A DNA stretch of 64,000 bases from Myxococcota bacterium. GTDB lineage: Bacteria; Myxococcota_A; UBA796; CAJQPC01. Positions 25,060-45,033 of this stretch are shown here, in pieces (the stretch's first letter is position 1; each line of letters begins with the position of its first letter). The translations under genes and the position numbers were made by a program. The stretch covers positions 253,027 through 317,026 of the forward strand of contig DASCPX010000129.1 of assembly GCA_036012755.1 (NCBI GenBank). Direction: 5' to 3'. A model generated the notes under the pieces. The model was not told the origin of the DNA. It made no database searches and was given only the letters and a program-made list of their open reading frames with translations.

Positions 25060-25708
25060 GGCCATCGAGACCGCGAGCGCCCGCTACCTCGTCGCTGGAC
25101 GCTGGGCCCATGGCTTCGCCCGCGGCAAGATGAGCGGAGATCCGGCCTACCGTCGCGTGCTGGAGCTGATCGACTGCGATGAGGGCACTTTTGTCGACAT
25201 CGGCTGCGGCGAAGGCCACCTCCTCGCGCTCGTGCGCGCGCTTCACCCGGGCCTGTCTCTGGTGGGCCTCGACCACGACGCCAGCCGCGTGGAGACCGCC
25301 AGGGTGGTGCTCGGAGAAGAAGCGAGGATCCAGCTGCATCTCGGCGACGTTCGCGACTTCGAGCTACCAGAGGCCCAGCTGATCGCTTGCCTCGACGTGC
25401 TCCACTACATGACTCCCGAGGAGCAGGACACGCTCCTGTCCCGCTTTGCTGTGGCCCTGGCCGCCGGTGGCGTGCTCCTCATCCGGGACGGACGCAGCGA
25501 AGCGGGCTTCGCGAGCACCATCACCCGCTGGTCCGAACAGCTGGCGGTGGCCTTCGGACGGCACAAGGGCGACGGCGTGTTCTTCCGTCCGGCCGAGGAC
25601 ACCCGAGCCACCCTCGAGGCTGCGGGCCTGCGGGTCGAGCTCTCCGACTGCAGCGAGGGCACCCCCTTCGCCAACATGCTCTGGGTCGGCCGCAAGGAGG
25701 GCTCGTGA
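25052..25708 (+). CDS. Class I SAM-dependent methyltransferase
   Basis: VDIGCGEG, GLDHD, DVLHY; alternative start at 25037. Confidence 0.9.
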   Translation: MREAIETASARYLVAGRWAHGFARGKMSGDPAYRRVLELIDCDEGTFVDIGCGEGHLLALVRALHPGLSLVGLDHDASRVETARVVLGEEARIQLHLGDVRDFELPEAQLIACLDVLHYMTPEEQDTLLSRFAVALAAGGVLLIRDGRSEAGFASTITRWSEQLAVAFGRHKGDGVFFRPAEDTRATLEAAGLRVELSDCSEGTPFANMLWVGRKEGS

Positions 25709-26793: not shown

Positions 26794-27590
26794 TGCTCGA
26801 AGCGGTCCTCCTCGATGCAAGGGTCCTGGTGCCTGGCGAAGGCGACCTCGCCGAAGACCTGCTGTCCGGGCGCCGGCGACAGGGGCGCATCGAGCTCCGC
26901 CGCTTGCCCACCATCGCTGGAGGCAGCTGGCGACGCATGAGCCGCCTCTCCCGCATGGTCGCCACGGCTGCCGCCGACCTCGCGGCCGAGGACGTGCCCG
27001 TCGTCTTCGGGACCGCCATCGGCGAGATCGTGCCGACGACACGCTTCCAGGACCGGCTCTACACAGAGGGCCCCGACCGCGCCTCGCCGCTGGCCTTCCA
27101 GAACAGCGTCTACAACGCCCCCGCCGGTCACCTCAGCATCGCGCTCGGCCTCCGCTCCCTCTCCGAGACCGTCGCCGCGGGCGGCGCCACCGGGCTCTCT
27201 GCGCTGCTACGCGGCATGACCTTGTTGCGGCAGCATGACGAGGTCCTCGTCATCGCTGCCGACGACGACAACGAACACATCGCCGCCGCCTGCGCCACCA
27301 ACGGCCTGCCGGCGCCGGGGGAAGCGGTGGCTGCCGTTCGGATCGGCCGCGCGGGCGAGGGCCCCAGGATCCGTCTTGGGGCCGGTGTCGATGGGGACGC
27401 CATCTTGACCCGGCGGACGCGCCTCCCGCGCGAGCAGGCCCTCGCCAGCGCCCCTGGAGCACCGATCGAAGCCTGCCTCGGGATCTGTCTCAGCTCCGGC
27501 CTCGCGGCGCTGTTGGCGCTGCGGCACCGAGGCGGCTGTGTCGTCGATCTCGACGGGAGGAGCGCGCTGTCTGCGAGGATCTGCCTGTGA
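26793..27590 (+). CDS. KS chain-length-factor-like protein (catalytically incomplete)
   Basis: WRRMSRLSR and SPLAFQNSVYNAPAGHLSI; no catalytic Cys/His/His; coupled to the KS. Confidence 0.82.
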   Translation: MLEAVLLDARVLVPGEGDLAEDLLSGRRRQGRIELRRLPTIAGGSWRRMSRLSRMVATAAADLAAEDVPVVFGTAIGEIVPTTRFQDRLYTEGPDRASPLAFQNSVYNAPAGHLSIALGLRSLSETVAAGGATGLSALLRGMTLLRQHDEVLVIAADDDNEHIAAACATNGLPAPGEAVAAVRIGRAGEGPRIRLGAGVDGDAILTRRTRLPREQALASAPGAPIEACLGICLSSGLAALLALRHRGGCVVDLDGRSALSARICL

Positions 27591-30190: not shown

Positions 30191-31233
30191 ACCTTCTTGC
30201 AGCGCCAGAGCGTGTGGCCCCCGACGCCCAGGCGCTCGTACTCACCGACGATCTCCAGCCCCGCATCGTGGATGCACTCGAGGAGGTGCTCCGCGCTGTA
30301 GATGCGGCTCGTGCCGTTGGCCAGGGCCGTGAAGTAGATGCTCGTGCCGTGGAGGGCGTAGCGGGCCACGTCGTTGCGCTGGCGGTCCCAGTAGTTGTCC
30401 ATGATCCAGACGGAGCCGCCGTCAGCCAGCGCTTCGGTCGCACGGGTGAGGATGTGCCGGATCTCTTCGAGGGCGAAGCAGACCAGGAACTGGCTCATCC
30501 AGACGACATCGAAGCCGCCGGGGAAGGGTGCCTCGGCGTCCAGGATGTTGATGGGGTGGCCCACGATGCGATCTGCGAAGCCGGCCTCCTCCACGTTCGC
30601 GGCCGCCTTCTCCAGCTGCCCCGGGAGATCGAGGATGGTGATCTCCACATCCGGGTCGTAGTCGCAGCACTTCAGGGCCCACCTTCCGGTGTTGCCGCCG
30701 ATGTCGAGCAGGCGCTTGGGCTTGTCGGCGAAGACCCGCGGCAGCACTCGCGGAAAGGCGCCGTCGCTGTAGAAGTGATCGAAGGCGAACCAGCTCCCCC
30801 GGGCCTTGTCCGGGAGCTCTGAGAGCGCCTCGTAGATCGTGGGCCAGTCACCGAAGACCTTCAACCCGGCGGCGTTGCCTTCGTCGATGGCCTTGTCGAG
30901 GTGGAAGAGGCCCTTGTAGCAGACGTCATGGATGAAGTTCATGTTGACCCGGACCATGGGGTCGTTCTGCACGTAGAAGCCGGCTTTCGTGGCCTTCCAG
31001 GTCCCCTCGTCCAGCTCGCAGAGTCCAAAAGAGATGCCCGCCTCGCACAGGGTCTCCACGGCGTACCGGGAGAGGCCGGTAGCCTCCATCGCCTCCTCTG
31101 TGGTCTTCGGGCCGGCGTCGAGGGCCTCGAGGAGCCCCCGCTCCCGCATGACCCGGGCCACCTGGAAGGCGACAGGGGCGAAGGTGAGGCGGGTGGCCTC
31201 GAAGAGGGCTGCGCGTTGGCTGGCGTGCTTCAT
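30187..31233 (-). CDS. SAM-dependent O-methyltransferase of the aryl-polyene-cluster type
   Basis: TFAPVAFQ, WFAFDHFYSD, LLDIGGNTG, WMSQFL, YWDRQR, YFTALANG. Confidence 0.88.
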   Translation of the reverse strand: MKHASQRAALFEATRLTFAPVAFQVARVMRERGLLEALDAGPKTTEEAMEATGLSRYAVETLCEAGISFGLCELDEGTWKATKAGFYVQNDPMVRVNMNFIHDVCYKGLFHLDKAIDEGNAAGLKVFGDWPTIYEALSELPDKARGSWFAFDHFYSDGAFPRVLPRVFADKPKRLLDIGGNTGRWALKCCDYDPDVEITILDLPGQLEKAAANVEEAGFADRIVGHPINILDAEAPFPGGFDVVWMSQFLVCFALEEIRHILTRATEALADGGSVWIMDNYWDRQRNDVARYALHGTSIYFTALANGTSRIYSAEHLLECIHDAGLEIVGEYERLGVGGHTLWRCKKV

Positions 31234-31287
31234 CACCGGAGCATCCTGGTACCCGGCTTCTGTAAGCTGATGGGGATGTGAGGACGA

Positions 31288-32181
31288 ATGTCGCTGCTGA
31301 TCATTCTCGGGTGCCAGGAGCCACGCTACGTCGATCCCCCTGGTCGTGACAGCGAACCAGTCGAGAGCGAGCCGGTCGTCGATGACAGCCCGAGCGACTC
31401 GGAGCGGCTCCACCCCGAGGGCTTCGAGGACCCGGCGGTCCATGGCGTCGAGGCCAAGCAGCAGAGCCAGGTCTGCGTCGACTGCCACGGGAGCACGTTG
31501 GAAGGTGAGGGCGCCGCCGTGACATGTGACAACTGTCATCGGCCCGGATGGCGAACCGACTGCACCTTCTGCCACGGCGGATCGGACAACTCGACGGGCG
31601 CACCCCCGCTGCACATCTCTGGCGTCGACGATGGCGAGAGCGCCACCTTCGCGCCCCACTCGGCTCACGTCGAGGACACCGAGCTGCATGCGGCCTTCGA
31701 CTGCACGGCCTGCCACGACAAGCCCGACGATCCGCTGTCGGAGGGGCACCTCTTCGTCGGCGACTCGACGCCGGGGCGGGCCGAGGTGGAGTTCTCGGGC
31801 GGCATCGCCGCCGGCAGCGAGTGGGACGGCGAGGGCCTGTGCTCGAACCTCTACTGCCATGGAGACGGCGCGGACCGCCGAGGCGAGAAGGGTCACATCG
31901 GCAGCCTCGAGGCCTGCGGAGAGAGCTGCCACTGGACCTCTGAGAACCAGGGGCAGTCGGTCCTGGGTGGAGAGCACGATCGCCACCTGGGCGAGTCAGG
32001 CATCGGCTGCGTGGACTGCCACAACGACACGGTCGACAGCGACGAGGGCATCTCGGACACCTCGCTCCACGTGAACGGCTCGCTCGACGTCGCGCTCGTG
32101 AGCTCGCTGGAGTGGAGCGGGTCGACCTGCACGGGTGGGTGTCACGGCAAGAACCATCAAGGGAAGGCCTGGAGCGACTGA
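31288..32181 (+). CDS. Multiheme cytochrome c lipoprotein (CxxxxCH/CxxCH family, up to 8 hemes)
   Basis: MSLLIILGC; CVDCH, CDNCH, CTFCH, CTACH, CSNLYCH, CGESCH, CVDCH, CTGGCH. Confidence 0.9.
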   Translation: MSLLIILGCQEPRYVDPPGRDSEPVESEPVVDDSPSDSERLHPEGFEDPAVHGVEAKQQSQVCVDCHGSTLEGEGAAVTCDNCHRPGWRTDCTFCHGGSDNSTGAPPLHISGVDDGESATFAPHSAHVEDTELHAAFDCTACHDKPDDPLSEGHLFVGDSTPGRAEVEFSGGIAAGSEWDGEGLCSNLYCHGDGADRRGEKGHIGSLEACGESCHWTSENQGQSVLGGEHDRHLGESGIGCVDCHNDTVDSDEGISDTSLHVNGSLDVALVSSLEWSGSTCTGGCHGKNHQGKAWSD

Positions 32182-32214
32182 TGGGTTAGACGCCGTCTGC
32201 GCTTGGAGGCGGCC

Positions 32215-32469
32215 ATGGAACTGAAGGTTCAGCTCAAGGAGCTCATCATCGAGGCCCTCATGATCGAGGACCTCGAGCCTGCGGATCTCGAGAACGCCGC
32301 GCCCCTGTTCGGTGACGGCCTCGGCCTCGACTCTGTCGACGCGCTGGAGCTCGCCATGGAGATCGAGCGGGTCTTCGGCGTCACCATTCCCGAGAGCGAG
32401 GAGAGCCGCGAGGTCTTCCGCTGCGTCGACACGCTCGCTGCCTACATCTCCGAGAACCGGGCCGCTTGA
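32215..32469 (+). CDS. Acyl carrier protein
   Basis: GGAGG RBS; PLFGDGLGLDSVDALEL phosphopantetheine motif. Confidence 0.95.
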   Translation: MELKVQLKELIIEALMIEDLEPADLENAAPLFGDGLGLDSVDALELAMEIERVFGVTIPESEESREVFRCVDTLAAYISENRAA

Positions 32470-32475
32470 AGCCGG

Positions 32476-32976
32476 CTACTGACTGGCCTCGCTCTCGCCC
32501 TCGGCCTGCCCGGTCTGTTCGCCCTTGGCCTCGGCCTGCTCCTCCTCGGTCTGCTGGAGCTTGACCGGAGCTACCGGTCCTGTGCCTGGGACTCGCGTCA
32601 TCTCCCAGTCCAGGGTGCCGAGGCTCTCGCCTTCGCTGTGGACGGCCATCACGATGTCTTTGTCGCCCTCGGAGGGCTTGAAGGTGTGTTCGAGCTCGCC
32701 CATGGTGCTCGTGGGTCCGATGGTGCCGAAGGTGAGGACCTTGCCATTCCACAGGACGTCGTAGGTGCGGAAGGCTCGCCCGGTCGTCTGGTCCCAGCCG
32801 TGTACTGCCAGCTCCCCACCCTCGTTCCTCAGCTGCCACTTGTAGGAGTTGTCGGGGGTCTCCCAGGTCCCCGTCAGATCGAGGGCCTCGAACGCGGGGG
32901 GTGTCTCCGCTTCGGTCTCCTGGCCGCATCCTTGCAGTGCCACCAGAGCCACCAGAGCCAACATCATGCGTGCCAT
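32476..32976 (-). CDS. Hypothetical lipoprotein (beta-barrel-like)
   Basis: MARMMLALVALVALQGC; DLTGTW motif. Confidence 0.7.
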   Translation of the reverse strand: MARMMLALVALVALQGCGQETEAETPPAFEALDLTGTWETPDNSYKWQLRNEGGELAVHGWDQTTGRAFRTYDVLWNGKVLTFGTIGPTSTMGELEHTFKPSEGDKDIVMAVHSEGESLGTLDWEMTRVPGTGPVAPVKLQQTEEEQAEAKGEQTGQAEGESEASQ

Positions 32977-33046
32977 CAAGTGAGCGATGCTACTGATTCG
33001 CTCTCCCGTTGTGCAAGTACGTCGCCCTCAATGGCTTACATATGGA

Positions 33047-33493
33047 TTACCTGGCCGCGCGGCGACGGGCCCACACGAACACGACGGGCCCGATCAACAG
33101 GCCGAGCAGGGCACCCAGCACGGCGTCTCCGAGCAGGCAGGACAAGAAGAGGTCGGGCAGCTCCCAGGAGAACAGCGCGAGCTTCTCGAGGAAGTCCTCT
33201 CCCTGGCTCACGTCGATGGTGCGCCAGGTGCCGAAGCGTAGGAACTCGCCGATCGCGATGCCCGCAGCGACCAGCAGCGGCGCCAACAGCGGGTTGCTGA
33301 TGTTGGCGGCGAGGTAGACCGTGATCTTGTTCAAGCGAGCCAGCCAGGCCACTCCGATGCAGATCGGCAGGTGGAGCCCATAGAGCGGCAGCGTGCCGAT
33401 GAACAGGCCCAGCGCGACGGCCCAGCCGAGCTTCGTGGGCTCCCGATGCTCTTGGAGCAGGTGCTTGAACAGCTTGCGGATCGCCTTGCGCAT
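33047..33493 (-). CDS. DUF2062 domain membrane protein
   Basis: PTKLGWAVALGLFIGTLPLYG, RLNK...ANISNP. Confidence 0.85.
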   Translation of the reverse strand: MRKAIRKLFKHLLQEHREPTKLGWAVALGLFIGTLPLYGLHLPICIGVAWLARLNKITVYLAANISNPLLAPLLVAAGIAIGEFLRFGTWRTIDVSQGEDFLEKLALFSWELPDLFLSCLLGDAVLGALLGLLIGPVVFVWARRRAAR

Positions 33494-33548
33494 CGGGGCT
33501 TTCCTATCGCGTCGATGGACCCCCGTGATCGGCGCGATATCCGCATCC

Positions 33549-34280
33549 ATGTTTCGCGTGGTGCTCCTGCTGCATGTCCTCGCCGCTGTCGCTGGCGCCT
33601 GGTTCGTGGGTCCCTGGTTTCCCGTAGCGGTCGTGTCCTCGCTCCTGCTCTTCATCGGCTTCGCTTCGAGCCACCCTGGTTGGGGCCTGTTCGGGCCGGC
33701 CGTGGTTCGGGGCGCCGGGGGCGATCGGGTCTCGCTCACCTTCGATGACGGGCCTCATCCAGACTCGACGCCAGCGCTCCTCCAGGCCCTGCGCGATGCC
33801 GAGATGCGCGCCACCTTCTTCGTCCTCGTCGATCGCTGTGAGCAGTGGCCGGAGCTGTTGAGCGCGATCGCGGCGGAGCACGAGGTCGGCCTGCACGGGC
33901 TCCGGCACCATCCCTGGATCGCGCTCTGGCCACCGGAAAGAGGCGCAGAGGAGCTGCGGGAGGCCAGGCGGCGCCTCGCTGAACTCTGCGGAGAGGAGAT
34001 CGCTCTGTACCGTCCCCCCTTCGGCATCACCTCGCCCAGGATGGTCGAGGCCGTCAAGGCGGTGGGGCTCCGCACGATCTGGTGCTCCATGCGGCCTCTC
34101 GATGGCATCTCCGGGGAGCCCGACCGCCTCCTGCACCTGTGCAAGGAGGCGCGCGGCGGTGACATCGTCCTCTTGCACGAGGGCCCGAACCGGCCCGCGG
34201 CTGGTGTGCTCGCGGATGTCCTCGCCGACTTCCGACAGCGGGGCTTGCGCTCCGTCACCGTGGGGGAGCTGCTCGCATGA
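33549..34280 (+). CDS. Polysaccharide deacetylase (NodB family) with N-terminal TM segments
   Basis: LTFDDGP, ATFFV, HEVGLHGLRH, YRPPFG, IVLLHE; start approximate. Confidence 0.92.
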   Translation: MFRVVLLLHVLAAVAGAWFVGPWFPVAVVSSLLLFIGFASSHPGWGLFGPAVVRGAGGDRVSLTFDDGPHPDSTPALLQALRDAEMRATFFVLVDRCEQWPELLSAIAAEHEVGLHGLRHHPWIALWPPERGAEELREARRRLAELCGEEIALYRPPFGITSPRMVEAVKAVGLRTIWCSMRPLDGISGEPDRLLHLCKEARGGDIVLLHEGPNRPAAGVLADVLADFRQRGLRSVTVGELLA

Positions 34281-35914
34281 AGCTGCTGGTGACCGGAATA
34301 GGCGCCTGGAGCGCCGCTGGTCGCGGAACGGGTGCCCTGGTCGAGCTCCTCGAGTCTCGCCGAGCCGCCTTCTCCGCGGAGCCGCCCTACCCGAGCGAAG
34401 GTCTCTACGCGCCCCGCTGCGGCCTGACCGAGGTCGAGCGCGACCGGCCCGCCGAGACCCTGCTCCTCGGCGCGGTCAGGGAGGCCCTGGCCCACGCCTC
34501 CTTCGGCGAGGGTCGCCTGGGCCTGGTCGTCGGCACTTCCAGCGGCAACATCTGCGGACCCTGGGAGCGCTGGCATCGCGCCCACCTCGCCGGAGAGCCT
34601 GCCAGCGAGGAGGGGACCTGGCGCCAGGACCCCACCAAGGTGGTCGCAGAGGCCATCGGCGCTACCCGCCATGCCACCGTCAGCGTCGCTTGCGCCAGCG
34701 GCACCGCCGGCTTCGTGCTGGCCCAGGGATGGCTCGCGGATGACCTCGTCGATGCCGTCGTCGTGGCCGGGGTCGATGCCCTCTCTCTCTACGTGCACGC
34801 CGGCTTCAACGGGCTTGGTGCACTCTCGAAGAGCCAGCCCCGGCCCTTCCATACCGAGCGGGACGGGCTCCTGCTCGGCGAGGGCGCGGCTGCGGTCCTC
34901 GTCGAGGTCGAGGCTCATGCCTGGGGCCGCGGCGCTACGTCGCTCTGCGAGCTCTGCGGCACGGGTCTGTCCGCGGATGCGGTCCACATGACCGCTCCGG
35001 ATCGCCAGGGAGGCGGTGCCGCTCGGGCGATGCAGGCTGCCCTGGACGACGCAGGGGTGGGAGCCGAGGCCATCGATCTGGTCTCCCTCCATGGCACGGC
35101 CACCTCCTTCAACGACGCGATGGAAGCCCACGCTCTGCAGCGTGTCTTCGGGGATCGCCCGCTGCCGCTCTTCGGCGTGAAGCAGGCCGTCGGCCACACC
35201 CTTGGTGCTGCCGGGTCCCTCGAGGCCACCGTCGTGGTCGAGGTCCTCTGCAGCGGACGGGTCCCACCGGCCCCGGAGATCGACGAGGAGCTGCCTGTGT
35301 CCTCGCAGCGGTTTCCTTCGGCCCCGCGGATTGCGATCTCGACGAACTCTGCCTTTGGGGGGGCCAACGCAGCGGCGGTCCTTGCTGCGCCGGGCGCTGT
35401 CCCCGAGTTGGTTCGCGAGCCCCGAGAGGTCATCGAGCTGGCTTCTGCCAGAGTGGAGATCCCCGAAGGCAAGGTGGACTGGAGTGCCCTCTGGGCAGCG
35501 CCGCCGGAGCGCTTCAAGAGGCTCAATCGCTATGTGCGCGTCGCGCTGGTGGCGATGAACCGTGTGCTGTCGGAGGTCGAGATCGGCCCGGACATCGGGG
35601 TCGTGCTGGCGTCGGAGAGCAACTGCCGGGCGACGGATCTGCGCTACCACCAGAAGCTGCTCCAGCGTGGGGCGGCCCAGGCGCCGAGGGTGGAGTTCAT
35701 CTACACGATCCCTGGGGCGCCGAGTGGAGAGGCAGCGATCCTCTGGGGGCTGCAGGGGCCCTCGATGGTCCTCTGCGGGCCGATGTCGGAGGCCGTGGAG
35801 GAGGCCAAGCGGATGATCCGGTGGGGCAGGGCTTCTCGGCTCGTGGCGCTGGGCATCGAGGCTCCGGAGCCCAGGGGTGCGGCCTGGGCGGAGGCGGTGC
35901 TGCTCGGTCACTGA
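34277..35914 (+). CDS. Beta-ketoacyl synthase fused to a C-terminal CLF-like domain
   Basis: SVACASG, LHGTAT, GHTLG, NSAFGG, then about 170 aa with RFKRLNR...EFIYTIPGAPSGE..ILWGLQGP. Confidence 0.88.
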   Translation: MKLLVTGIGAWSAAGRGTGALVELLESRRAAFSAEPPYPSEGLYAPRCGLTEVERDRPAETLLLGAVREALAHASFGEGRLGLVVGTSSGNICGPWERWHRAHLAGEPASEEGTWRQDPTKVVAEAIGATRHATVSVACASGTAGFVLAQGWLADDLVDAVVVAGVDALSLYVHAGFNGLGALSKSQPRPFHTERDGLLLGEGAAAVLVEVEAHAWGRGATSLCELCGTGLSADAVHMTAPDRQGGGAARAMQAALDDAGVGAEAIDLVSLHGTATSFNDAMEAHALQRVFGDRPLPLFGVKQAVGHTLGAAGSLEATVVVEVLCSGRVPPAPEIDEELPVSSQRFPSAPRIAISTNSAFGGANAAAVLAAPGAVPELVREPREVIELASARVEIPEGKVDWSALWAAPPERFKRLNRYVRVALVAMNRVLSEVEIGPDIGVVLASESNCRATDLRYHQKLLQRGAAQAPRVEFIYTIPGAPSGEAAILWGLQGPSMVLCGPMSEAVEEAKRMIRWGRASRLVALGIEAPEPRGAAWAEAVLLGH

Positions 35915-36831
35915 CGCCCCGAGATCTCTCCTTGGGTCACCTTGTCGATGAAGGGCACTGAAGCGTTCGCCAGCAGCACGCCCAGGAGCACGCCATCCGG
36001 GTAGGGCGTGTAGTAGCGAAGGAGCATGGCGTAGCCGGCCGCCAGCACGCAGAAGATCAGCCGTCCGGGTCGCGAGAAGGGGGTCGTCACCGGGTCGGTC
36101 ACGATGAAGAACGCTGCGAGCAGGGCGCCGCCTCCGAAGAGCTGGAGGAGGGGGTCGCCCTCCAGCCAGGGCGCGTGGCCCTCCATGCGTGCTCCGGCTG
36201 GGAGGAGGAGGGCGCAGACCGACACCGCAGCGAGGTAGACCAGCGGCATGCGGAAGTCGATGGTCCGCAGTCCGATCAGCAGGATCCCGCCTGCGATCAA
36301 GGCAAGAGGTGCCGCCTCGCCCAGGGCGACCGAGGCTTCTCCCAGGACCATTCCGCCCAGCGCTGGAGCGCTGGACCCCAGCTCGGTGGAGAGGGGCGTA
36401 GCGTGGCTGATGCCGTCCACTTCCCACTCGGGCTTCAGGAAGACGGAGGGAGCGACCCCCATCATCACGGCCAGACCCAGGGCCGCCGGGTTGAAGGGGT
36501 TCTTGCCCAGGCCGCCGAAGGCGTGCTTGCCGACGAGGATGGCGAGCGCGCTTCCGCCCACCGCGGCCCACCACGGAGCAGTGATGGGCAGCATGAGCGC
36601 CACGAGCAGGCCGGTGAGCACCGCGCTGCCGTCCAGCGCCTGTTGGCGGTCACAGATCGCGTCCAGGACCCAGGCTGTGGCGATGGCCAGGCCGAGGAGC
36701 ATCAGCGCGTCGGCGCCATGTCGCCAGACCGCAGCGACACACACAGGCGCCAGGGCGACGAGCACCTGGACCATGAGCGTGCGGGTCCGTCGCCCGCTGT
36801 GGATGGCCGGCCCGGCTCCGTGCTCGGTCAC
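35908..36831 (-). CDS. rnfD: RnfD/NqrB-family membrane subunit
   Basis: KHAFGGLGKNPFNPAA, VDGISHATPL (FMN-Thr site), FFIVTDPVTTP, YPDGV...LLAN. Confidence 0.9.
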   Translation of the reverse strand: MTEHGAGPAIHSGRRTRTLMVQVLVALAPVCVAAVWRHGADALMLLGLAIATAWVLDAICDRQQALDGSAVLTGLLVALMLPITAPWWAAVGGSALAILVGKHAFGGLGKNPFNPAALGLAVMMGVAPSVFLKPEWEVDGISHATPLSTELGSSAPALGGMVLGEASVALGEAAPLALIAGGILLIGLRTIDFRMPLVYLAAVSVCALLLPAGARMEGHAPWLEGDPLLQLFGGGALLAAFFIVTDPVTTPFSRPGRLIFCVLAAGYAMLLRYYTPYPDGVLLGVLLANASVPFIDKVTQGEISGRQ

Positions 36832-37238
36832 AGGTAGAACAGGGGCCCGAGGGCGTAGTAGATGCAGCCGACCACCAGTACTCGAAGGACCGCGCTGCGC
36901 CGTGGGTTGCTCTCGTCGTCGAGTCGTCGTCGCCAACCGTCCACCAGCGCCCCGCCGACGAGCCAGACCGCTGCGGCGACGAGGGCCGACGCCAGGTCAG
37001 GGTAGGCGGGCAGGGCGAGCAGGAAGACCGCCGGGGCCAGTCTCGGCGCCCGAGCACACACGACGAGGCCCACAGCAAGCGGCACTGCAAAGGGGGGCAG
37101 CGCTACGAGGTGCTGGATCGCCCAGGCCAGCACCGGCACCAGGGCAGCCAGCTGCCAGCGTCGCGAGCGCTCCTTGAGGAACAAGGCGCTGACCGCGAGG
37201 GCGGCACACACGGCGCTCGCGGGGACCATCAACGTCAC
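36828..37238 (-). CDS. Small polytopic membrane protein, possibly a divergent RnfA/E-like subunit
   Basis: 136 aa hydrophobic; coupled on both sides; VCAALAVS and LVVGCIYY segments. Confidence 0.55.
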   Translation of the reverse strand: MTLMVPASAVCAALAVSALFLKERSRRWQLAALVPVLAWAIQHLVALPPFAVPLAVGLVVCARAPRLAPAVFLLALPAYPDLASALVAAAVWLVGGALVDGWRRRLDDESNPRRSAVLRVLVVGCIYYALGPLFYL

Positions 37239-37630
37239 TGGTCGACCCCGGTGGTGGAACGCCAGGCGGCGAGCCGCTCGTCGAGTGCCGCGGCCAGGAC
37301 CCTGGACGAAACGGTGGCGCCGCTCACGGCATCGACAACTGTCGGTGGGGTGGCTTCCTGGCCTTGGTAGGCGGCGAGGTGCTCCACGCTGAGGGCGTCG
37401 TGCTCCAGGCCTTCCCGGGAGCGGAGGAGGACCACCTCCTCGATGCGCTCGCCTCGGATCACCACCAGTCCCTCGATCGGTCCCTGCATTCCATCAGCGC
37501 AGAAACACACCACCGCATCCCCGGAGCTCGCCTGCCGCTGTTGCGCCACCTGCTCGCAGGGTGCGGGCGAGCTGACCCAGACCAGACCTGCCGCTGCCAC
37601 CAGGCCCAGCGCGGTCATGCCGCGCTTCAT
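37235..37630 (-). CDS. FMN-binding domain protein (RnfG-like, short)
   Basis: N-terminal TM; DGMQGPI; VDAVSGATVSS flavinylation motif; ATGA overlap. Confidence 0.85.
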   Translation of the reverse strand: MKRGMTALGLVAAAGLVWVSSPAPCEQVAQQRQASSGDAVVCFCADGMQGPIEGLVVIRGERIEEVVLLRSREGLEHDALSVEHLAAYQGQEATPPTVVDAVSGATVSSRVLAAALDERLAAWRSTTGVDQ

Positions 37631-38742
37631 CCCCCTGCTCCGAGCCGGACCTTCACCGCGCGCAACCTCTCTACCAGGGGCAGGTGCGCCGCACAGGAGT
37701 ACTCGCAGACGCCGCACTCGATGCACAGCAGCGCGCTCGGGTGGGGATGGTCGACGAGGAGCCCAGCGGGCAGGTCGAAGGGACATGCCTGGAGACAGTC
37801 GCCACAGCGCAGGCAGGAGCCGGTGGAGGTGTGGCGGGTCTGGGCCCGAGTCAGGGCCAGGATGGCGGTCGTTCCCGCTGTCACTGGAGCATCCAAGGCC
37901 ACGGGGGACCCCATCATCGGCCCGCCAGCGAGGACCGCCGCGGCGCGGTCCAGATCCGTCCTGCAGTGATCGAGCACGCGACCCACCTCGGTGCCGACAG
38001 GGACGATGTAGTTCCCAGGCTGGCCGACCGCCTCGCCGTCCACCGTGATCACCCGTTCCAGGAGCGGGCGGCGCTCGCACACCGCCAGGTGGAGGTGACG
38101 GGCCGTCTGTGTATTGATGACCAGCGCGCCGACATCCGCGGGGCGGCCTCCCGGTGGCACCTTTCGCCCCGTGAAGTCCTGCACCAGGAGCGTCTCGTAG
38201 CCGTGGGGGTAGCCCTTGTCGTCCCGGGCGATGAGACCGTTGTCCGCGCCCACCGCCCGCATCGCGATGCGCAAGCCGCACTCCACCTCGTCGCGGTGCT
38301 CGACCAGGACGCGCCCGTCTGCGGTGACGAAGGGCTCGCTCTCCCGGCCATTGACGAGCACCGTGTCGATCGGTGTCCCGACCGCCAGCTTCGCCCACGT
38401 GGGGAACATGGCACCGCCCATTCCCACCAGACCTGCGTCACGAACGAGGTCCACGAGCTCGCCTGGCGACAGTTGGTCCGGATCCCGGTGGGTGTCGCTC
38501 CGCTCCGGAGGTTCCCAGACACCCTCGATGGCGATCCGGGACTCATCCACGCCGACCACCACCCCGCTCAGCGGCGTGTGACGACTCGCCCCCTCCCTGG
38601 AGCGCGCGACCAGCATGCCGGCCGTCACGGACTGGCCAGGCCGCACCACCGGCTCCAGCTCTTCGATGGGCAGACGTACGCCGAGTGGTGCGATCGGGCG
38701 GATCGGCAGGTCCGCGCACCCCTTGTTGGCCGGGATCCTCAG
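37627..38742 (-). CDS. rnfC: RnfC-like NADH/FMN/2x[4Fe-4S] subunit (probable CTG start)
   Basis: HTPLSGVV, AGLVGMGGAMFPT, NGRESEPFVTAD, GGPMMG, CLRCGDCLQACP, CIECGVCEYSC. Confidence 0.88.
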   Translation of the reverse strand: MRIPANKGCADLPIRPIAPLGVRLPIEELEPVVRPGQSVTAGMLVARSREGASRHTPLSGVVVGVDESRIAIEGVWEPPERSDTHRDPDQLSPGELVDLVRDAGLVGMGGAMFPTWAKLAVGTPIDTVLVNGRESEPFVTADGRVLVEHRDEVECGLRIAMRAVGADNGLIARDDKGYPHGYETLLVQDFTGRKVPPGGRPADVGALVINTQTARHLHLAVCERRPLLERVITVDGEAVGQPGNYIVPVGTEVGRVLDHCRTDLDRAAAVLAGGPMMGSPVALDAPVTAGTTAILALTRAQTRHTSTGSCLRCGDCLQACPFDLPAGLLVDHPHPSALLCIECGVCEYSCAAHLPLVERLRAVKVRLGAGG

Positions 38743-39035
38743 GGACTCATCTCGTCGGGCCGGTGGCACTCTGCACACTGGGCGTGGAAGCCGGATTCAT
38801 GACAGGTCAGGCAGGAGCCGGCGTGGGCCGAGGCCACCAGCGAGTGCTCGTCCCTGGCCTCCGGGCTTTCCCACGGTCGTCGGAAGGCAGTCGTGTGGGT
38901 GGAGGGCACGAACCGAGCGTGGCAGTCCCCACATGCTCCGGCGCTGTCGTGTGTGGGCCCGGGCGCCGGCCTCGCCAGCGAGCCCAGGGACACGAGCGCC
39001 AGCGCCGAGGCTCCGAAGAGGAGCGACCACCTCAT
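38739..39035 (-). CDS. Small periplasmic triheme cytochrome c
   Basis: Signal peptide; CGDCH, CLTCH, CAECH. Confidence 0.88.
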   Translation of the reverse strand: MRWSLLFGASALALVSLGSLARPAPGPTHDSAGACGDCHARFVPSTHTTAFRRPWESPEARDEHSLVASAHAGSCLTCHESGFHAQCAECHRPDEMSP

Positions 39036-42000
39036 CGGGTGGCCCCCAGGTCGATCCAGCGGATCAACGCAAGCAGCTCATCCTCCGCGAGCACGGTGGG
39101 GTGTGCGGGCAGGTCCCGCGGTGCGTCCAGCTCCTCTGCGGTGAGCACCTCGATCAGCCAACTCCGGCTCGCGAGGGCTTCGCTGTGGGCGACATGCTCT
39201 CGGAGCTGCTCGAAGGCGTCTTCGCCCTGCAGATCCAGCGAGCTGTCTTCGCCGTGGCAGTCCGTGCAGCGCGCCTCGATGATCGGTCCAATGTCCTCGT
39301 CGAAGATCACCGAAGTCAGCTCCAGATCCTCACCGTAGTTGACCGGCTCCGTCTTGTGGTGGCCCGGGTCGTCCCAGGTCGCCGCGGTGCGCGAGGCCGA
39401 GGTCACCGCATCGACCGTGCCGAAGGTGTCGCTCGGCCGACCGGTCAAGGAGCCGTGGCAGCCGCCGCAAGCCTGTGGGAACAGCGTGTACGGGACCGAC
39501 ATCGAGAACTCCTCGCCGGGGAGGCCGTACATCCAGCGACCCATGGATCGCAGCGCCATGAACCGGGAGTTCAGGGCCTGGAGGGTGAAGCTCAGGCCCG
39601 AAGGCACGACGAAGTGGGCCGATCCGTCCTCTTCGAGCGGCACCTCGATGACCAGCGCTCGACGGGGCGGCCCGGTGTCGCCCTCGCGCTGGGGCAAGGC
39701 TGCCACCACCCGTAGCGCAGCCACCCGGTCCTCCTCTGGCACGGGCTGCCCCGAAATCGGGTCGATCGGTAGCGCGATGCTCTTTGGCCCCTGCGGATAC
39801 GGGCGCTCGAAGATCGCATCGACCAGCCTGTAGTCGTAGACCTTCACGACCATGGGGACGTCATCGGGGTAGCCCTCGAAGCCGCGCACCTGTCCGACGG
39901 GGCCGCTGTGGTGTTCCGCGGCAACGAGCCGCTTGTCCACGGACTCCTTGGCCCGCACGACCACGGGCCGCGGCCACAGCTCTGCCCGGTCGGAGCTCAC
40001 CTCCACCACACGCTGGTAGGGACCAGCCGCGAAGCCGTCTTCGGACTGCAGCGAGGGGTCCGGGATCAGCCTCAGGATGTCGAAGTCCGGCGCCTCGTCA
40101 GGATCCGACAGGTCGATCGGACCTGGCGCATGGGCCACGAGCAGGCTGCCGTCGGGCAGTGGATAGGGGTCGCGGTAGGCCCCGCCGCTGGAGATGCCCT
40201 TGAAGGTGACGGCGGGATCGAGCTGGATCCAGCCAGGGACGAAGCGGTGCGCAGCGCTCTGGGCCGCTGGCTCGGGGTGATCGAGGTCGTCGACCGGGTT
40301 GTCCGGTTCGACGGTGACGCCGAGCTGGTGATCGGCCAACAGCAGCGTGCCGCCCCACCAGGAGTCTGCGTCGCGGCCGATGCGGACCTCGAGCCCGTTT
40401 GGCAGTTCCCGGTCGTCGCTGTGGATCGGTACTCCCGAGCGGTTTCCGTTGTGTGGGTGGAAGTCCGACCCGTCCACGTGGAGGCGGAACAGCGCGCCGT
40501 TGAAGTAGGGGCGGTCCTGCTCCCAGCCGACGCGCAAGAAGGTCATCACCGGGGATCCGTCCGAGCGCATGGTGGGACGTCGGACCTGGTCGACGCTGTA
40601 GGTCATGCGCTTGAGCGAACGCTCGAAGGTGGAGCGCTCGGCGCCTGGGGTGGCCAGTCGAAGACGGAACGCGTCGTAGCGGGGAGCCATGCGCTGCTCG
40701 GCTTCGATCGCGAAGTGGGTGGTGGAATCGCAGGGTGCGGGCAGCGGCCGATCCAGCTCGAGGTGACCGGCCGTGTGGCGCGCGACGCGGCGGATCTCCC
40801 CGGCGTTGGTGCCGCGCACGAACGCGATGCGCCGGCCGTCGAAGGTGCCAGGACGCTCGGTGAGCTGCCGGTCCTCGACCGTGAGCGTCGAGCCGCCTTC
40901 GGCCTCGCCCAGGATCGCCTCCGGGCTGCTGCGTGCCCACTCGTCGAGGTGGTTGGACATCACGATCAGGTCCACCCGGGAGAGGTCGAGGCCGTCGCGA
41001 TCGTCCTCGTCGGGCACATACAGCGGCTCTACGAAGTGGTGGCGACTGTCATTCGAGAAAGTGAGCTGCCGCGCCTCGCCGGTGGCCAGCTCGATCTCCC
41101 AGATGTCGAAGGGCTCCTCCTCCGAGCGCCGCATCGCGAAGGCCACGCGGGAGGCGTCGTAGCTGACGTCCGGCGCCCGGATGTCCGCTTCGCCTGCGGG
41201 TGACAGGGCCGCCGAGAGCACCGTCTGGCCGTCGTCCTGCTGCCAGATCAGCTCCGCGCCCGGGTAGTAGGTGTCTGACTCGAAGAAGCGCTCGGGGGTG
41301 TGGCGGTCGCGGCGGACGAAGATCAGGCCGCGCTGCTCTCCCAGGGGTGCTCCGGCGCGCTCCGTCAGCTCAGCCGCTTCCAGCTCGAGCCAGCGGACCA
41401 GCACCTCGAAGTCCGGGTCTCCCCGGGAGAGGAACTGGTTGCCCCCCTTGTGGACGACGCCGCCCTCGCTCACGGGGATGTTCTTCAAGAGCTGCTTGGA
41501 CTGCGTCACGTCCCCGGACAGGTGGACGAGGCGGGTGGTCTCGCCGAGCATCGCCTGGCGGTTCGCCTCGAGCATCGCAGGGGTGAAGCGGCCCGGGAGC
41601 GAGGGCAAGCCCGGGTCCAGCTTGAGATCGTTGAAGGCCATCGTCCCGTGACAGCTGCTGCCCATGCAGGTCTTGCGGGCGAGGATCGGCGTCACCTCGG
41701 CGCCGAAGAAGCGGCCCGCCTCGGTGGGCTCGGGAGCAGGGGTTCGCTGGTCGACCGCCGAGCGCTCGGCCTCGATCCAGTCCAACAGCGCCCGGTACCC
41801 GGGGTCCTCCTCGTCTGTGAAGACCTCGGGGTGCGAGCGGGGGTAGTTCGACAGCACAGCTGCCAGCGGGGCGCGGGCGAGGGGGCTGGCCGGCGCAGGC
41901 GCGCCGAGGTCCAGGGGCTGCAGCAGGTCTTCACCCGCTCTGCCGGTGCAGCGGTCGTAGGCAGTCTGGATGTGTTCCGCGGGAACCCGGCCGCTGGGGT

Positions 42001-42202
42001 CCACCGGCCAGACGAGCAGCCAGGGGTCGTCGGCGTCCTGTTGCAGCTCGGCGAAGGTCTCCCTCGACACGCCGTGGCAGTTGCCACACCGCGCGTCCAG
42101 CACCGGCACCACCTCGCTCGCGAAGCGGGACAGGGGAGTCACCTCGGTCGGGCGCTCGGCGCAGGCGAGCAGGACCGCAGCGACGGCACCGGAGTGGGTC
42201 AT
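39032..42202 (-). CDS. Hydrazine synthase alpha (HzsA)-like multiheme lipoprotein
   Basis: MTHSGAVAAVLLAC; TolB-like propeller (PDVSYDASRVAFAMR, RQLT); YRDPYPLPDG; VPLEEDGSAHFVVPSG...LQALN...CGGCH; hemes CGNCH, CMGSSCH, CGGCH, CTDCH. Confidence 0.72.
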   Translation of the reverse strand: MTHSGAVAAVLLACAERPTEVTPLSRFASEVVPVLDARCGNCHGVSRETFAELQQDADDPWLLVWPVDPSGRVPAEHIQTAYDRCTGRAGEDLLQPLDLGAPAPASPLARAPLAAVLSNYPRSHPEVFTDEEDPGYRALLDWIEAERSAVDQRTPAPEPTEAGRFFGAEVTPILARKTCMGSSCHGTMAFNDLKLDPGLPSLPGRFTPAMLEANRQAMLGETTRLVHLSGDVTQSKQLLKNIPVSEGGVVHKGGNQFLSRGDPDFEVLVRWLELEAAELTERAGAPLGEQRGLIFVRRDRHTPERFFESDTYYPGAELIWQQDDGQTVLSAALSPAGEADIRAPDVSYDASRVAFAMRRSEEEPFDIWEIELATGEARQLTFSNDSRHHFVEPLYVPDEDDRDGLDLSRVDLIVMSNHLDEWARSSPEAILGEAEGGSTLTVEDRQLTERPGTFDGRRIAFVRGTNAGEIRRVARHTAGHLELDRPLPAPCDSTTHFAIEAEQRMAPRYDAFRLRLATPGAERSTFERSLKRMTYSVDQVRRPTMRSDGSPVMTFLRVGWEQDRPYFNGALFRLHVDGSDFHPHNGNRSGVPIHSDDRELPNGLEVRIGRDADSWWGGTLLLADHQLGVTVEPDNPVDDLDHPEPAAQSAAHRFVPGWIQLDPAVTFKGISSGGAYRDPYPLPDGSLLVAHAPGPIDLSDPDEAPDFDILRLIPDPSLQSEDGFAAGPYQRVVEVSSDRAELWPRPVVVRAKESVDKRLVAAEHHSGPVGQVRGFEGYPDDVPMVVKVYDYRLVDAIFERPYPQGPKSIALPIDPISGQPVPEEDRVAALRVVAALPQREGDTGPPRRALVIEVPLEEDGSAHFVVPSGLSFTLQALNSRFMALRSMGRWMYGLPGEEFSMSVPYTLFPQACGGCHGSLTGRPSDTFGTVDAVTSASRTAATWDDPGHHKTEPVNYGEDLELTSVIFDEDIGPIIEARCTDCHGEDSSLDLQGEDAFEQLREHVAHSEALASRSWLIEVLTAEELDAPRDLPAHPTVLAEDELLALIRWIDLGATR

Positions 42203-45033
42203 TCGATCGAGCGGAGGTAGCGAACCAGGCACTCCAGCTCCCAGATGGACAGCTGCGAGGTGGTTCCGTGGGTGTCGATCAGGCCGTTGTGCTCGTTGAG
42301 GCCCGTTTCGCCGGGACGCAGGGCCGGGTGGTCGGGGGTGGCAACCACCTCTCGCAGGCTCAGGGCGCCGCCGTGGTGCAGGAAGCGGGGTGGCCGGGAC
42401 CACAGACCGCGGAGCGATGGCGCGACGAAGTGGCCCTCGTGAGCCTCGACGCGCCCCTCGTCTCCAGTGTCCCAGTAGCGCGAGAAGCCGTTGATCCAGT
42501 CGATGCGGTCTGCGCTGACCAGGCTGTGCACGTTGTCCCGAGCCGCCGGGGTGACGAGCGGCGGGAAGGCCTTGTTGTCGTTGTGCACGTGGACCTTGTC
42601 GGTGAAGGTGGGCGCCGGGTGGCAGCCGGAGCACCCCGTCGTGGGGCTCTCGAAGAGCTGTCGCCCCTGCGCCACCATCGGGTCGTCAGGTGACACCGGG
42701 TTTGGGAGCAGCCGGGGCTCCGCTCCTTGATAGACGCCGATGAAGCGCTGGAGGTCCCGAAAACCCCAGGGCTGGCCGAAGACCTCCTCGGACGTGCGCT
42801 GGAAGAACACCTCCCGCCGATACACGAGATCGGCGACTTCGGAGTCCAGTCGCGTCCCCGCCGTCACCAGGGTGTCGGCGGAGTGGGAGAAGGACTCGCG
42901 CTCTTCCGCTGGCGCGAACATCGCGCTGAAGTCACCCACTGGTGTGTCGCCCTGGAAGTCCACCAGCGGGTTGTGCTCCATCATCATCGTGAGCGGCTCA
43001 TCGATCGAGAGCACGCCCTCCTGGAAGAACGGCACCTCCTGGAAGAGGTTGCGGATGTCGGGCACCGCCCGGCTCCCCCCGGTCCGCTCGGCTCCGCCTC
43101 GGCTCTGGCCCATCACCTGGCTGACGCTCCAGGCCTGGCCGTCCGACGTGTCGCGGTAGTGGCAGTGCACGCAGCTCTGGTCTCGATCAACCGAGAACAA
43201 GCTCGTCTGGACGAAGAGCTCGCCGCGTTCGAAGTCGTCGGCCGGGAACCGAGGGGCGTCCGGCTCCAGCACGAGCTCGTCCCGCTCACCGGTCTCGAGA
43301 TCGACGAAGCTGAGTGTGTCGCCGAGCTGATCCGCCACCACGAGCTCGTCGCCGGCTACCGCCAGTCCGACCGGCTTGAGCCCGGTGTCGAAGACCAGGC
43401 CGGGCGTCAGGTGCTGGGGGCCCGCTACGCGCCACTGTTGGACCTGGGAGGTTCCGGACATCGTCACGTAGAGGTGCTCGCCACTCCGCTCGATCTGCTC
43501 CGGGAAGGCGCCCACCACCTGCATCAGCTCCGGGGCCACGTCCCCCTTGATGTCCCCGGCCATGGCCTCGAAGGTGTCGGAGGTGTACCGGGTGAAGTCC
43601 GGGTTCGAGACGTAGGCGGCGACCGAGTCGACCGAGGGGTCGAGGACCACGATGTCGTTGCTGATGTCGCGGAACTTCTCCTGGGCGGTCCCGTCCACGG
43701 CCTCGTAGGGCCCGAGCGGCTCCTGCTGTGCCAGCGGCAGCACACGGCCGGTGTCCGGATCGCGGAACATCGTGAACTCGGTCTCCGGGTGGTCCCGATC
43801 GGTGCTCTCGCGTCCGGGGTCGTGCTCCTTGGGGTGGCCCGAGCCCACGCCGAGGGTGGCGAAGACGAGCCAGTCATCGACGGCCGCGATGTCGTTGACA
43901 GGTGACCGGGTGAAGATGCGGCGAGTCTCCTCCAGCGTCGCGACGTCGATCACCGAGACGTCCAGCGTGCCGGTGTTGGCTACGTACAAGGTCCCGCCAT
44001 CCGGCGACAGCGCCAGGTCCCGCGGCCCGTGGCCCACAGAGATTCCGGGACCCTCTGTGCCTGCGGCGATCCAGGCCCGCAGCCGCTGGAGGTCCGGGTC
44101 CTCCGGATCGTCGAAGACCACGCCCCCTGCGTGGTGGCGGCCGTCGGCGGCGTCGGCGGTGCCTCCGTCGGCAACAGACAGGCCGATGCGGATCAGCGAG
44201 CTCGCCTCTGGTTCGCCCGGGAACACGTGGACGATCGCGCTGCTCAGCGCCTCTTCCGCGTCCGGTCCGGCCACGAAGCCCCCTGCCCGGTATTGGTGGC
44301 AGCCCGAGGTGCCGCATCGAGCGCGCAGGATCGAGCGCAGGCCGGCCGAGGTGCGTCGGGCGGGGGTCTTGCCATCCGCCGAGGTGGGCTCTGTCGGGCC
44401 GAGGAAGGCCTCGCGGTCGAAACCGAGCGTCACGACGGATCCCGCCAGCGTTTCCCCGCGCTGGTCCAGCTCGACGACCAGGACCTGGTTGTGCCAGGAG
44501 TTCGTGACGAAGAGGCGCTCGCCGTCTATGCCGAACACCAGGTCTTCACAGTAGAAGGGGACCGGGATCTCGCTGGTGACCCGATCGGTGGCGGTGTCGA
44601 TCACGGACATGAAGTTCGAGAACCGGTTCGTCACCACCAGCCAGCGGCCGCTCGGGTGGAGCGCCATCCCCTGGGGGGAGTGCCCCACCTCGATCCGGCC
44701 CCGCTCCACGTGGGAGCGGACATCGACCAGCACCAGCGACGAGCCCGGCCTGCTCTCCGTCCCCGAGAGCGTGACCCACGCCCAGGCACCATCGGCGCTG
44801 GCCACGACCCGCTGGGGCCGCGCTCGCGGGATGCGTTCCCCCGCGCCCGGATCGGGATTCGCGACGGGCTCCAGGGAATGGCGGGCCCAGGCATCGACAG
44901 GTCCGTCGGCCTCTGGCGGATCGACGCGGGCCTCACCCAGCAGGGAGACGCAGATCCCCACCACCAGCGCGGCCACGGACAGGCCCACGACGACGCGGTC
45001 GCCGGGCCAGAGCCGCGCGAAGTCGCCGCTCAA
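42199..45033 (-). CDS. YncE/YVTN beta-propeller fused to a diheme CCP/MauG-like domain (HzsBC-like architecture)
   Basis: N-terminal TM; VGHSPQGMAL and LYVANTG...VSVID repeats; CGTSGCH, SCVHCH, GCSGCH; APSLRGLW...FLHHG. Confidence 0.8.
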   Translation of the reverse strand: MSGDFARLWPGDRVVVGLSVAALVVGICVSLLGEARVDPPEADGPVDAWARHSLEPVANPDPGAGERIPRARPQRVVASADGAWAWVTLSGTESRPGSSLVLVDVRSHVERGRIEVGHSPQGMALHPSGRWLVVTNRFSNFMSVIDTATDRVTSEIPVPFYCEDLVFGIDGERLFVTNSWHNQVLVVELDQRGETLAGSVVTLGFDREAFLGPTEPTSADGKTPARRTSAGLRSILRARCGTSGCHQYRAGGFVAGPDAEEALSSAIVHVFPGEPEASSLIRIGLSVADGGTADAADGRHHAGGVVFDDPEDPDLQRLRAWIAAGTEGPGISVGHGPRDLALSPDGGTLYVANTGTLDVSVIDVATLEETRRIFTRSPVNDIAAVDDWLVFATLGVGSGHPKEHDPGRESTDRDHPETEFTMFRDPDTGRVLPLAQQEPLGPYEAVDGTAQEKFRDISNDIVVLDPSVDSVAAYVSNPDFTRYTSDTFEAMAGDIKGDVAPELMQVVGAFPEQIERSGEHLYVTMSGTSQVQQWRVAGPQHLTPGLVFDTGLKPVGLAVAGDELVVADQLGDTLSFVDLETGERDELVLEPDAPRFPADDFERGELFVQTSLFSVDRDQSCVHCHYRDTSDGQAWSVSQVMGQSRGGAERTGGSRAVPDIRNLFQEVPFFQEGVLSIDEPLTMMMEHNPLVDFQGDTPVGDFSAMFAPAEERESFSHSADTLVTAGTRLDSEVADLVYRREVFFQRTSEEVFGQPWGFRDLQRFIGVYQGAEPRLLPNPVSPDDPMVAQGRQLFESPTTGCSGCHPAPTFTDKVHVHNDNKAFPPLVTPAARDNVHSLVSADRIDWINGFSRYWDTGDEGRVEAHEGHFVAPSLRGLWSRPPRFLHHGGALSLREVVATPDHPALRPGETGLNEHNGLIDTHGTTSQLSIWELECLVRYLRSIE

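Follow-up and report, generated by a model that had tools for sequence, protein, structure and literature searches.

In the Rnf complexes of known structure (RnfABCDEG; 7ZC6, 8AHX, 9ERI), electrons pass, as outlined in PMC12174285, through the FMN of RnfG, the FMN and the riboflavin of RnfD, and both [4Fe-4S] clusters and the FMN of RnfC, and then reach NAD. Two-subunit Nqr/Rnf-like systems, in which an RnfD devoid of the flavinylated Thr is fused to NqrF (PF00175), have been described mainly from Actinobacteria and the candidate phyla radiation (CPR), and it has been proposed for such systems that one Rnf/Nqr arm, together with an FMN-binding partner, serves as a one-way path from NAD(P)H to the outside (PMC8238504, PMC11334425). 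Here we analyze a stretch of 64,000 nucleotides from a Myxococcota bacterium (GCA_036012755.1, contig DASCPX010000129.1, positions 253,027 to 317,026; hereafter the window, to whose first letter coordinates refer unless a locus or contig is named), which carries a seven-gene cassette that joins Rnf-type subunits and a multihaem cytochrome to relatives of the anammox hydrazine synthase (HZS; 5C2V). Judged by its sequence, the cassette is a member of neither Rnf, nor the Nqr/Rnf-like systems, nor hydrazine synthase, although it resembles the one-way conduit proposed for the second of these. It very probably encodes a trans-membrane electron wire, whichever the direction of flow, and we favor, with moderate confidence, a one-way wire that would lead from cytoplasmic NADH through RnfC/D/G and the cytochrome to a periplasmic, HZS-related haem enzyme of two proteins.

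All seven genes lie on the reverse strand. The run begins with a HZS beta-gamma-like fusion (42199..45033; 944 aa, start codon uncertain, with an N-terminal hydrophobic anchor) and a HZS alpha-like protein (39032..42202; 1056 aa, with a lipobox-like N-terminus, four haem motifs and a match to PF18582 above cut-off), followed by an exported triheme c7-like cytochrome (38739..39035; 98 aa, three CxxCH motifs, a weak Cytochrome_C7 match). The Rnf part comprises an RnfC-like NAD(H)/FMN/2[4Fe-4S] subunit (37627..38742; 371 aa; TIGR01945 at 256 bits, cut-off 246), a short RnfG-like FMN-binding protein (37235..37630; 131 aa, with an N-terminal anchor; PF04205 at E 4.6e-9), a protein of 136 aa with six predicted helices and no Pfam or NCBIfam match, which we assign below as a shortened RnfA remnant (36828..37238), and an RnfD-like flavin-bearing membrane subunit (35908..36831; 307 aa; TIGR01946 at 219 bits, cut-off 207). 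A first-pass annotation, made from the letters of the window, had listed the last four genes and the adjacent triheme cytochrome, and all of these were recovered; the unit is, however, larger than the four Rnf genes, given that the cytochrome and the two HZS-like haem proteins precede them. All seven frames are open, and all six junctions are 4-base overlaps. The cytochrome and RnfC genes overlap in CTGA instead of the ATGA or GTGA of most relatives. The RnfC start is hence probably a CTG that shares bases with the cytochrome stop codon, with an upstream GTG at 38778 as the alternative. Positions 35500-41638 were matched without difference by one contig of run X6, which comes from the same study as the possible source runs and thus checks the assembly and does not constitute an independent occurrence. 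Almost the whole stretch is contained in six runs, all of them labelled marine metagenome, with no RNA dataset among the listed runs containing it. No sigma-70-type promoter was found, and terminators were detected at chance level only.

Relatives of the cassette were collected from three sources: species genomes searched with RnfC (4 close loci among 48), 401 genomes of the phylum searched with the alpha-like protein (66 matched, regions being taken for part of them) and a metagenome scan (18 loci). Altogether, this yielded 25 cassette-type loci, or 20 distinct ones after near-identical loci were merged. These same loci went into the profiles of the cassette genes, which hence detect them by construction; the loci found via the alpha-like gene provide a non-circular test for RnfC, which comes next in 15 of 16 such distinct loci, the contig of the 16th ending first. 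The cytochrome is present in all 20 distinct loci. Independent profiles for RnfB, RnfA and RnfE matched none of the 25 cassette loci, as against all three control loci. The 136-aa protein and RnfD occur together in 13 of the 20 distinct loci, and contig ends truncate six of the remaining seven; in the group of L018, L098 and L112 unrelated genes follow rnfG, and in L100 the pair is located upstream instead. Most relatives also carry a second small membrane gene between rnfG and the 136-aa gene (14 of the 17 distinct loci that reach rnfG), with no copy in the window, in L100 or in the L018 group, and its profile had no match in the window's genome. Many relatives, furthermore, include apbE within the cassette. 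The window's copy has neither apbE nor the second small membrane gene, and its seven genes are the smallest version among the loci compared.

By record name, the relatives belong to Myxococcota and Planctomycetota, with close RnfD matches in Parabeggiatoa and Bdellovibrionaceae, and two loci, L107 and L113, look like Bacteroidota by their neighbour genes. None of the 60 genomes nearest to the window's own has a close RnfD match (best 109 bits), so that the distribution of the cassette is patchy. The flanking genes vary between loci, and no further conserved gene was apparent by eye. In L100 (2537-5397), rnfD and the beta-gamma-like gene are separated by genes for a PAS histidine kinase and an ANTAR response regulator, and a similar pair is found upstream in L098 (99-2731); ANTAR regulators often govern the use of nitrogen compounds. 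Near the cassette of L020 (14859-18623), and in this genome only, there is a molybdopterin oxidoreductase with a 4Fe-4S partner that appears nitrate/nitrite oxidoreductase-like by eye.

Compared to Rnf, the cassette retains C, D and an FMN-binding G with their cofactor residues, the order C-G-(E)-A-D, and a descendant of RnfA. It differs in having no RnfB, no [2Fe-2S] ligands of RnfA/E, an RnfA cut to 136 aa and, in the window's genome, no gene in the RnfE slot, as well as in the shortening of RnfC and RnfG and in an invariant periplasmic His loop of RnfD. These losses leave no U-shaped path and no place for ferredoxin. The first-pass annotation had already pointed to the missing RnfB and full-length RnfA/E, and neither rnfB nor full-length rnfA/E is encoded within positions 25000-55000 of the window. 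It had also named orphan rnfABE genes elsewhere as the finding that would speak against its interpretation, and none were detected in the window's genome (96% complete). The Rnf-Nqr family has four genes in this genome and the RnfD family three, besides a single RnfB-type FeS gene and three apbE genes, the latter all outside the cassette; beyond the cassette, every Rnf/Nqr subunit gene falls in either a complete Rnf operon (C71) or a complete Nqr operon (C63). Completion of the cassette by orphan subunits was accordingly rejected. In other genomes, the cassette is independent of canonical RnfA/E: in four of five further cassette genomes tested, PF02508 finds no match and the cassette's own RnfD is the only gene of its family (G322, 92% complete; G422-G424, about 9 Mb, completeness not given). 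In the fifth, an assembly of 3.7 Mb, one A/E-type pair adjoins the only RnfD-family gene, on another contig. The canonical rnf operon of the window's genome (G000:C71:105809-113911) appears from the translations to include large 2-oxoacid:ferredoxin oxidoreductase-like genes between rnfB and rnfC, and the same rnfB-rnfC spacing is seen in L077, L088 and L089.

The 136-aa protein is, on the evidence of family profiles, a shortened RnfA remnant that has lost the cluster ligands. No member of its family matches PF02508 (Rnf-Nqr) on its own, and a search with the single sequence returned only itself. The family profile, however, gave 48 matches among 1.84 billion proteins, the two weakest of which are PF02508 members, and a profile of 45 homologues from which these two had been excluded gave three matches among 177,635 PDB sequences, all of them RnfA/NqrE (the best being residues 80-184 of Acetobacterium woodii RnfA, E 2.9e-5). 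In hhalign, the family aligned with RnfA at 90% (E 1.6e-6, score 43, compared to at most 15 in 30 shuffles) and gave nothing with RnfE. The similarity is strongest in the last two helices, and the C-terminal RnfD-contacting helix is kept; in the Clostridium tetanomorphum structure (7ZC6), this RnfA helix touches helix V of RnfD (PMC9588780). The two [2Fe-2S] Cys columns are occupied in 17/17 sequences of each canonical set, versus 20/45 for the best Cys column of the remnant, which is out of register, RnfA C113 aligning to a Pro four residues away. The protein encoded here has two Cys, of which Cys11 is found in 1/45 homologues, and 6/45 have no Cys at all. The monomer model (pLDDT 74, pTM 0.53) resembles generic helical folds only: Foldseek gave no match at E<=0.001, the VIA rows were generic helical proteins and the Atlas search returned no named family. 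The suggestion that C, D and G act alone, made in the first-pass annotation, thus does not hold, as an RnfA remnant has been kept alongside them.

The second small protein of the relatives sits in the RnfE slot and has no sequence or profile match to RnfE or RnfA. Its fold search brought up NqrE, RnfE and RnfA at Z 5.1-5.4 (rmsd 6.2-6.6 over 123-124 aligned residues), which rank below unrelated rows. Peptide transporters, the only two PDB matches of its profile (E 0.001-0.01), were taken as chance. In three loci (L019:11453-12070, L020:9124-9741 and L109:11891-12481), the protein of this slot has an extra N-terminal soluble domain of about 70 aa.

RnfD carries PF03116 only, and its residues T145, N114 and D246 align with A. 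woodii T156, N123 and D249 in the alignment to 9ERI and 7ZC6; according to PMC11889175, the Thr is the FMN site and the Asn and Asp bind riboflavin. Across the family, the FMN site is Thr in 33/44 and Ser in 11/44 sequences, and both riboflavin positions are invariant (Asn 44/44, Asp 44/44). The equivalent of Glu185 is Glu in 25/44 and Gln in 15/44, and that of Asn90 is gone in 44/44, Asn90 being non-universal in canonical RnfD too. Between helices VII and VIII there is a GHAPW insertion, with H219 present in 44/44 sequences, which the helix assignments of PMC9588780 place, by analogy, on the periplasmic side. The corresponding pattern GH[ATV][PS] was found in none of 22 canonical RnfD/NqrB rows.

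RnfC is clearly related to the RnfC chains in the PDB (E 2e-55) and retains eight Cys, the glycine-rich FMN loop, ExEP and GGPMMG. In comparison with canonical RnfC, it shows a clade-specific deletion of 21-28 residues in the NuoF-like domain and has also lost 9-10 residues of the ferredoxin domain. The alignment, which covers 13 of 20 cassette and 7 of 21 canonical sequences, lacks the segment after the acidic strand end in 13/13 cassette RnfC, whereas this segment is present in 7/7 canonical ones, and YxxGYE stands in place of the canonical YP[QMI]G[AG]E. The first-pass annotation singled out ESEP in place of ECEP; the substitution is there (12/13 aligned cassette sequences, versus ECEP in 7/7 canonical), but it has no unusual significance and was rejected as a defect because it is family-wide and the same as the motif of Aquifex NuoF (E95-S96-E97, with S96 reported as non-conserved in PMC6560083). 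An Arg before ESEP is found in the window's RnfC only (1/13 aligned). RnfG has the SGAT flavinylation motif in the family alignment and scores 16 bits against TIGR01947, under the cut-off of 102. In trees with a narrow canonical sample and a midpoint root, 13 cassette RnfD (96/91) and 20 cassette RnfC (99, quick tree) group separately from the Rnf subunits of the complete operon in the same genome, each in a clade of its own.

The profile of the 1056-aa family has a single PDB match, HZS alpha (5C2V_A, E 9.8e-14), and the haem motifs of the protein lie at residues 39, 179, 912 and 979. The 944-aa protein matches NCBIfam hydrazine_BC at E 1e-12, far below the cut-off, and its family profile finds 5C2V_B (5.5e-24) and 5C2V_C (5.9e-9), its best match being a generic YVTN surface protein. 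It combines a YVTN beta-propeller, in which a Cx4CH domain is inserted, with a CCP/MauG-like dihaem domain, and has haem motifs at 240, 621 and 801. Like anammox HZS, the cassette thus has an alpha-like protein with both C-terminal haem motifs and a fused beta-gamma-like protein, the beta-gamma gene preceding that of alpha. Unlike it, the cassette lacks the alpha-I Tyr in all five aligned sequences, possesses additional haem domains at the N-terminus, stays far below the NCBIfam cut-offs, resides in hosts with haem-copper oxidase-family genes and comes with an NAD(H)-linked wire. No Tyr was found at His+3 or His+4 after the alpha-I haem motif (0/5 aligned), the residues there being L/F and then T/S; in hydrazine synthase, Tyr591 is the proximal ligand of haem alpha-I (PMC12758564). 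A true hydrazine synthase was rejected, and hydrazine synthesis by the pair is unlikely given the missing Tyr and the haem-copper oxidase-family genes of the hosts. Alignment to 5C2V is unreliable in the regions of the third Cys bond of haem gamma-I and of the zinc ligand Cys303. The inter-haem Trp of CCP/MauG was not found either, the column two before the invariant G673, which we take from motif spacing to be the position of this Trp, being V/F/Q/S/I/L in 13/13. Homologues of HZS from outside anammox (clades I-IV) likewise have co-located alpha-like and fused beta-gamma-like genes without Tyr591, but the neighbours described for them are FG-GAP proteins and ABC-binding proteins, with no Rnf genes among them, in a paper that mentions Rnf twice only (PMC12758564).

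A haem-copper oxidase-family gene is present in 11/11 cassette genomes, and no common nitrogen-oxide metabolism was found among them in a search that covered NrfA (4/11), the cd1 family (2/11) and NosZ (6/11) and did not extend to NirK or nitrate reductases; the window's genome has none of the three. The same genome encodes a second, distant HZS alpha-like gene (L090; G000:C117:2657-12157), clustered with genes for imelysin, a di-haem DHOR protein, a thioredoxin-like protein, DUF3570 and apbE, in what looks like an iron-uptake or flavinylation cluster. Across relatives, the cytochrome family has 2-5 CxxCH motifs.

In four of 15 more distant HZS-like loci (L079, L081-L083), the same cytochrome family stands beside an RnfD-NuoF fusion; Pfam confirms this fusion and a 2Fe-2S/4Fe-4S neighbour for L079 and L081. 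This sister cassette has no G and no RnfA remnant and keeps the His loop. The recurring core of the two architectures is therefore an NAD(H) site, RnfD and the cytochrome. Besides the fusion, a pentahaem cytochrome and the 2Fe-2S/4Fe-4S protein, the sister loci (L079:12928-18895; L081:2629-8796; L082; L083) contain FGE-sulfatase-like genes and an ApbE with a C-terminal FGE-like extension, and in L081 the 2Fe-2S/4Fe-4S protein is fused to a VKGC-like domain.

By analogy with the solved Rnf structures, the order of carriers would be FMN(C)-2[4Fe-4S]-riboflavin(D)-FMN(D)-FMN(G). As RnfB and the A/E cluster are missing, the path ends at G on the periplasmic side; the obvious carrier to follow is the cytochrome encoded alongside, to which either G or the His loop of RnfD might pass electrons. 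The RnfA remnant would be a scaffold that packs on RnfD, one of the three ApbE encoded elsewhere in the genome would attach the flavins, and the alpha/beta-gamma pair would accept the electrons and perform a reduction other than hydrazine synthesis. Outward flow is the direction that we consider probable: from NADH (-320 mV) to the usual c-type haems electrons run downhill, small bis-His c7-type cytochromes usually having potentials above that of NADH, and they are also drawn to the outside by the membrane potential. The conduit between NAD(H) and the periplasm suggested in the first-pass annotation, which we likewise infer, is supported by the absence of orphan rnfABE, by the cassette genomes free of RnfA/E and by the cytochrome in 20/20 loci. 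Its view of the cytochrome as a substitute for the RnfB/ferredoxin arm stands in part: the cytochrome co-occurs in every distinct locus and in the sister cassette, but is most likely a relay to the HZS-like enzyme and not the end point. A complex prediction for RnfD, the RnfG domain and the cytochrome with 3 haems (score 0.01, mark 0.32) was used neither for nor against this scheme.

Several observations weigh against an outward, NADH-fed wire. RnfC has lost 21-28 NuoF-like residues, which makes NADH binding an assumption; RnfD retains the channel-lining F242, D246 and D296, which an ion-coupled inward flow could use too; this copy has neither apbE nor the second small membrane gene and has the unique Arg and the CTG start; and the canonical set in the trees is narrow. 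Moreover, RnfC/D/G are lacking within 13-20 kb in 10 of the 15 more distant HZS-like loci (a further locus ends early), and such enzymes thus do not always need this wire. The most serious alternative, although rather unlikely in our estimate, is flow in the opposite direction, in which the HZS-like enzyme oxidizes a periplasmic substrate and electrons run via the cytochrome, G, D and C to NAD+, either in an energy-conserving loop fed by a very low-potential donor or uphill, driven by ion flow through RnfD. The retained residues just named, along with N114, fit such a scheme, and canonical Rnf in forward mode reduces NAD+ through its C-D-G arm (PMC12174285). Yet it requires a donor below -320 mV or ion coupling, and the proposed coupling elements, the RnfB shuttle and the RnfA/E [2Fe-2S] switch, are lost; among the RnfD positions, the Glu185 equivalent is Glu in little more than half of the sequences and that of Asn90 in none is Asn, the latter with the caveat on canonical RnfD given above. 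The NuoF-type domain of the sister cassette also argues for outward flow, as NuoF-type domains usually oxidize NADH.

The deletion in RnfC bears on another possibility, namely that the wire is real but its cytoplasmic partner is NADPH or some other carrier. The segment missing from all aligned cassette RnfC and the replacement by YxxGYE would accord with this, but the FMN loop, ExEP, GGPMMG and all eight Cys are kept and the same slot in the sister cassette holds a complete NuoF domain set, and we consider this variant improbable. Still less credit can be given to a normal ferredoxin:NAD+ Rnf obtained by borrowing RnfA/E/B from the other operon or by a 136-aa dimer that rebuilds the iron-sulfur site: the genome does have a complete Rnf, and one of the two Cys of the 136-aa protein falls in the column that is Cys in 20/45, but canonical A/E are missing in four of five cassette genomes, RnfB is absent from all 25 loci, and the Cys pattern of the remnant (Cys11 almost private, some homologues Cys-free, C113 opposite Pro) tells against a rebuilt cluster site. 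An equally remote reading would have the cassette functional in the relatives and decaying in this genome, to which the missing apbE, second small membrane gene and two haems, the CTG start and the unique Arg all lend themselves. The intact frames and overlaps speak against decay, as do end branches no longer than those of the sister (D 0.33 vs. 0.35; C 0.65 vs. 0.68), and the losses recur elsewhere: apbE is absent from L104-L107 and L113, the second membrane gene from L100, and three haems are found in L019, L020, L104-L108 and L113.

Compared to the Nqr/Rnf-like systems, the cassette has a separate RnfC input, a flavinylation Thr that is mostly kept (33/44, with Ser in 11/44), an RnfA remnant, a multihaem cytochrome and the HZS-like enzyme, and the window's RnfD is not fused to PF00175. 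The survey in PMC8238504 defined Rnf by RnfB, and the cassette would therefore fall in none of its Rnf/Nqr classes. Methanosarcina Rnf with MmcA, as far as described, similarly pairs an Rnf-type complex with a multihaem cytochrome; that Rnf retains RnfA, B and E and is fed by ferredoxin. In a survey of titles and abstract openings outside subscription journals and large supplements, we found no description of the present combination, although the cluster table of PMC8238504 may list such clusters. The present analysis contributes the RnfA assignment of the 136-aa protein with controls, the test in genomes free of RnfA/E, the His loop common to both architectures and the minimal version of seven genes.

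The cassette amounts to a natural dissection of Rnf, in which C, D and G were kept and RnfB and the iron-sulfur arm of RnfA/E discarded, and it can thus directly test whether ions cross via RnfD or via RnfA/E, both models being discussed in PMC12174285. It also offers a first functional handle on the non-anammox homologues of hydrazine synthase: a dedicated NAD(H) link would imply a redox enzyme with steady turnover, which bears on the origin of hydrazine synthase. The smallest version, with seven genes, is the easiest for reconstitution. In a broader and frankly doubtful scenario, Rnf would have split in evolution, its NAD arm becoming a cable assisted by the membrane potential that delivers electrons below the NADH potential to an HZS-like enzyme that catalyzes an undescribed reduction of the N-O or N-N type in bacteria from several phyla that tolerate oxygen and are not anammox organisms; RnfD would have been recruited twice, with RnfC/G and as a fusion to NuoF, and the His loop would be the cytochrome dock.

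In the window, both sides of the cassette region (24313-35914 and 53097-63550) carry genes for ketosynthases, acyl carrier proteins, acyltransferases, a glycosyltransferase, DUF2062 and LolA, together resembling an aryl-polyene-type lipid cluster. A multihaem cytochrome with GSu-type Cx4CH/CxxCH domains is encoded on the forward strand at 31288-32181, near a TonB-dependent receptor (27587-30190) and a methyltransferase, and DUF2330 genes form a tandem pair on the reverse strand at 2371-5060. Adjoining the 5' end of the cassette, also on the reverse strand (45915-50196), are the genes for a glutamate dehydrogenase and then a fusion of receiver and PPDK_N domains.

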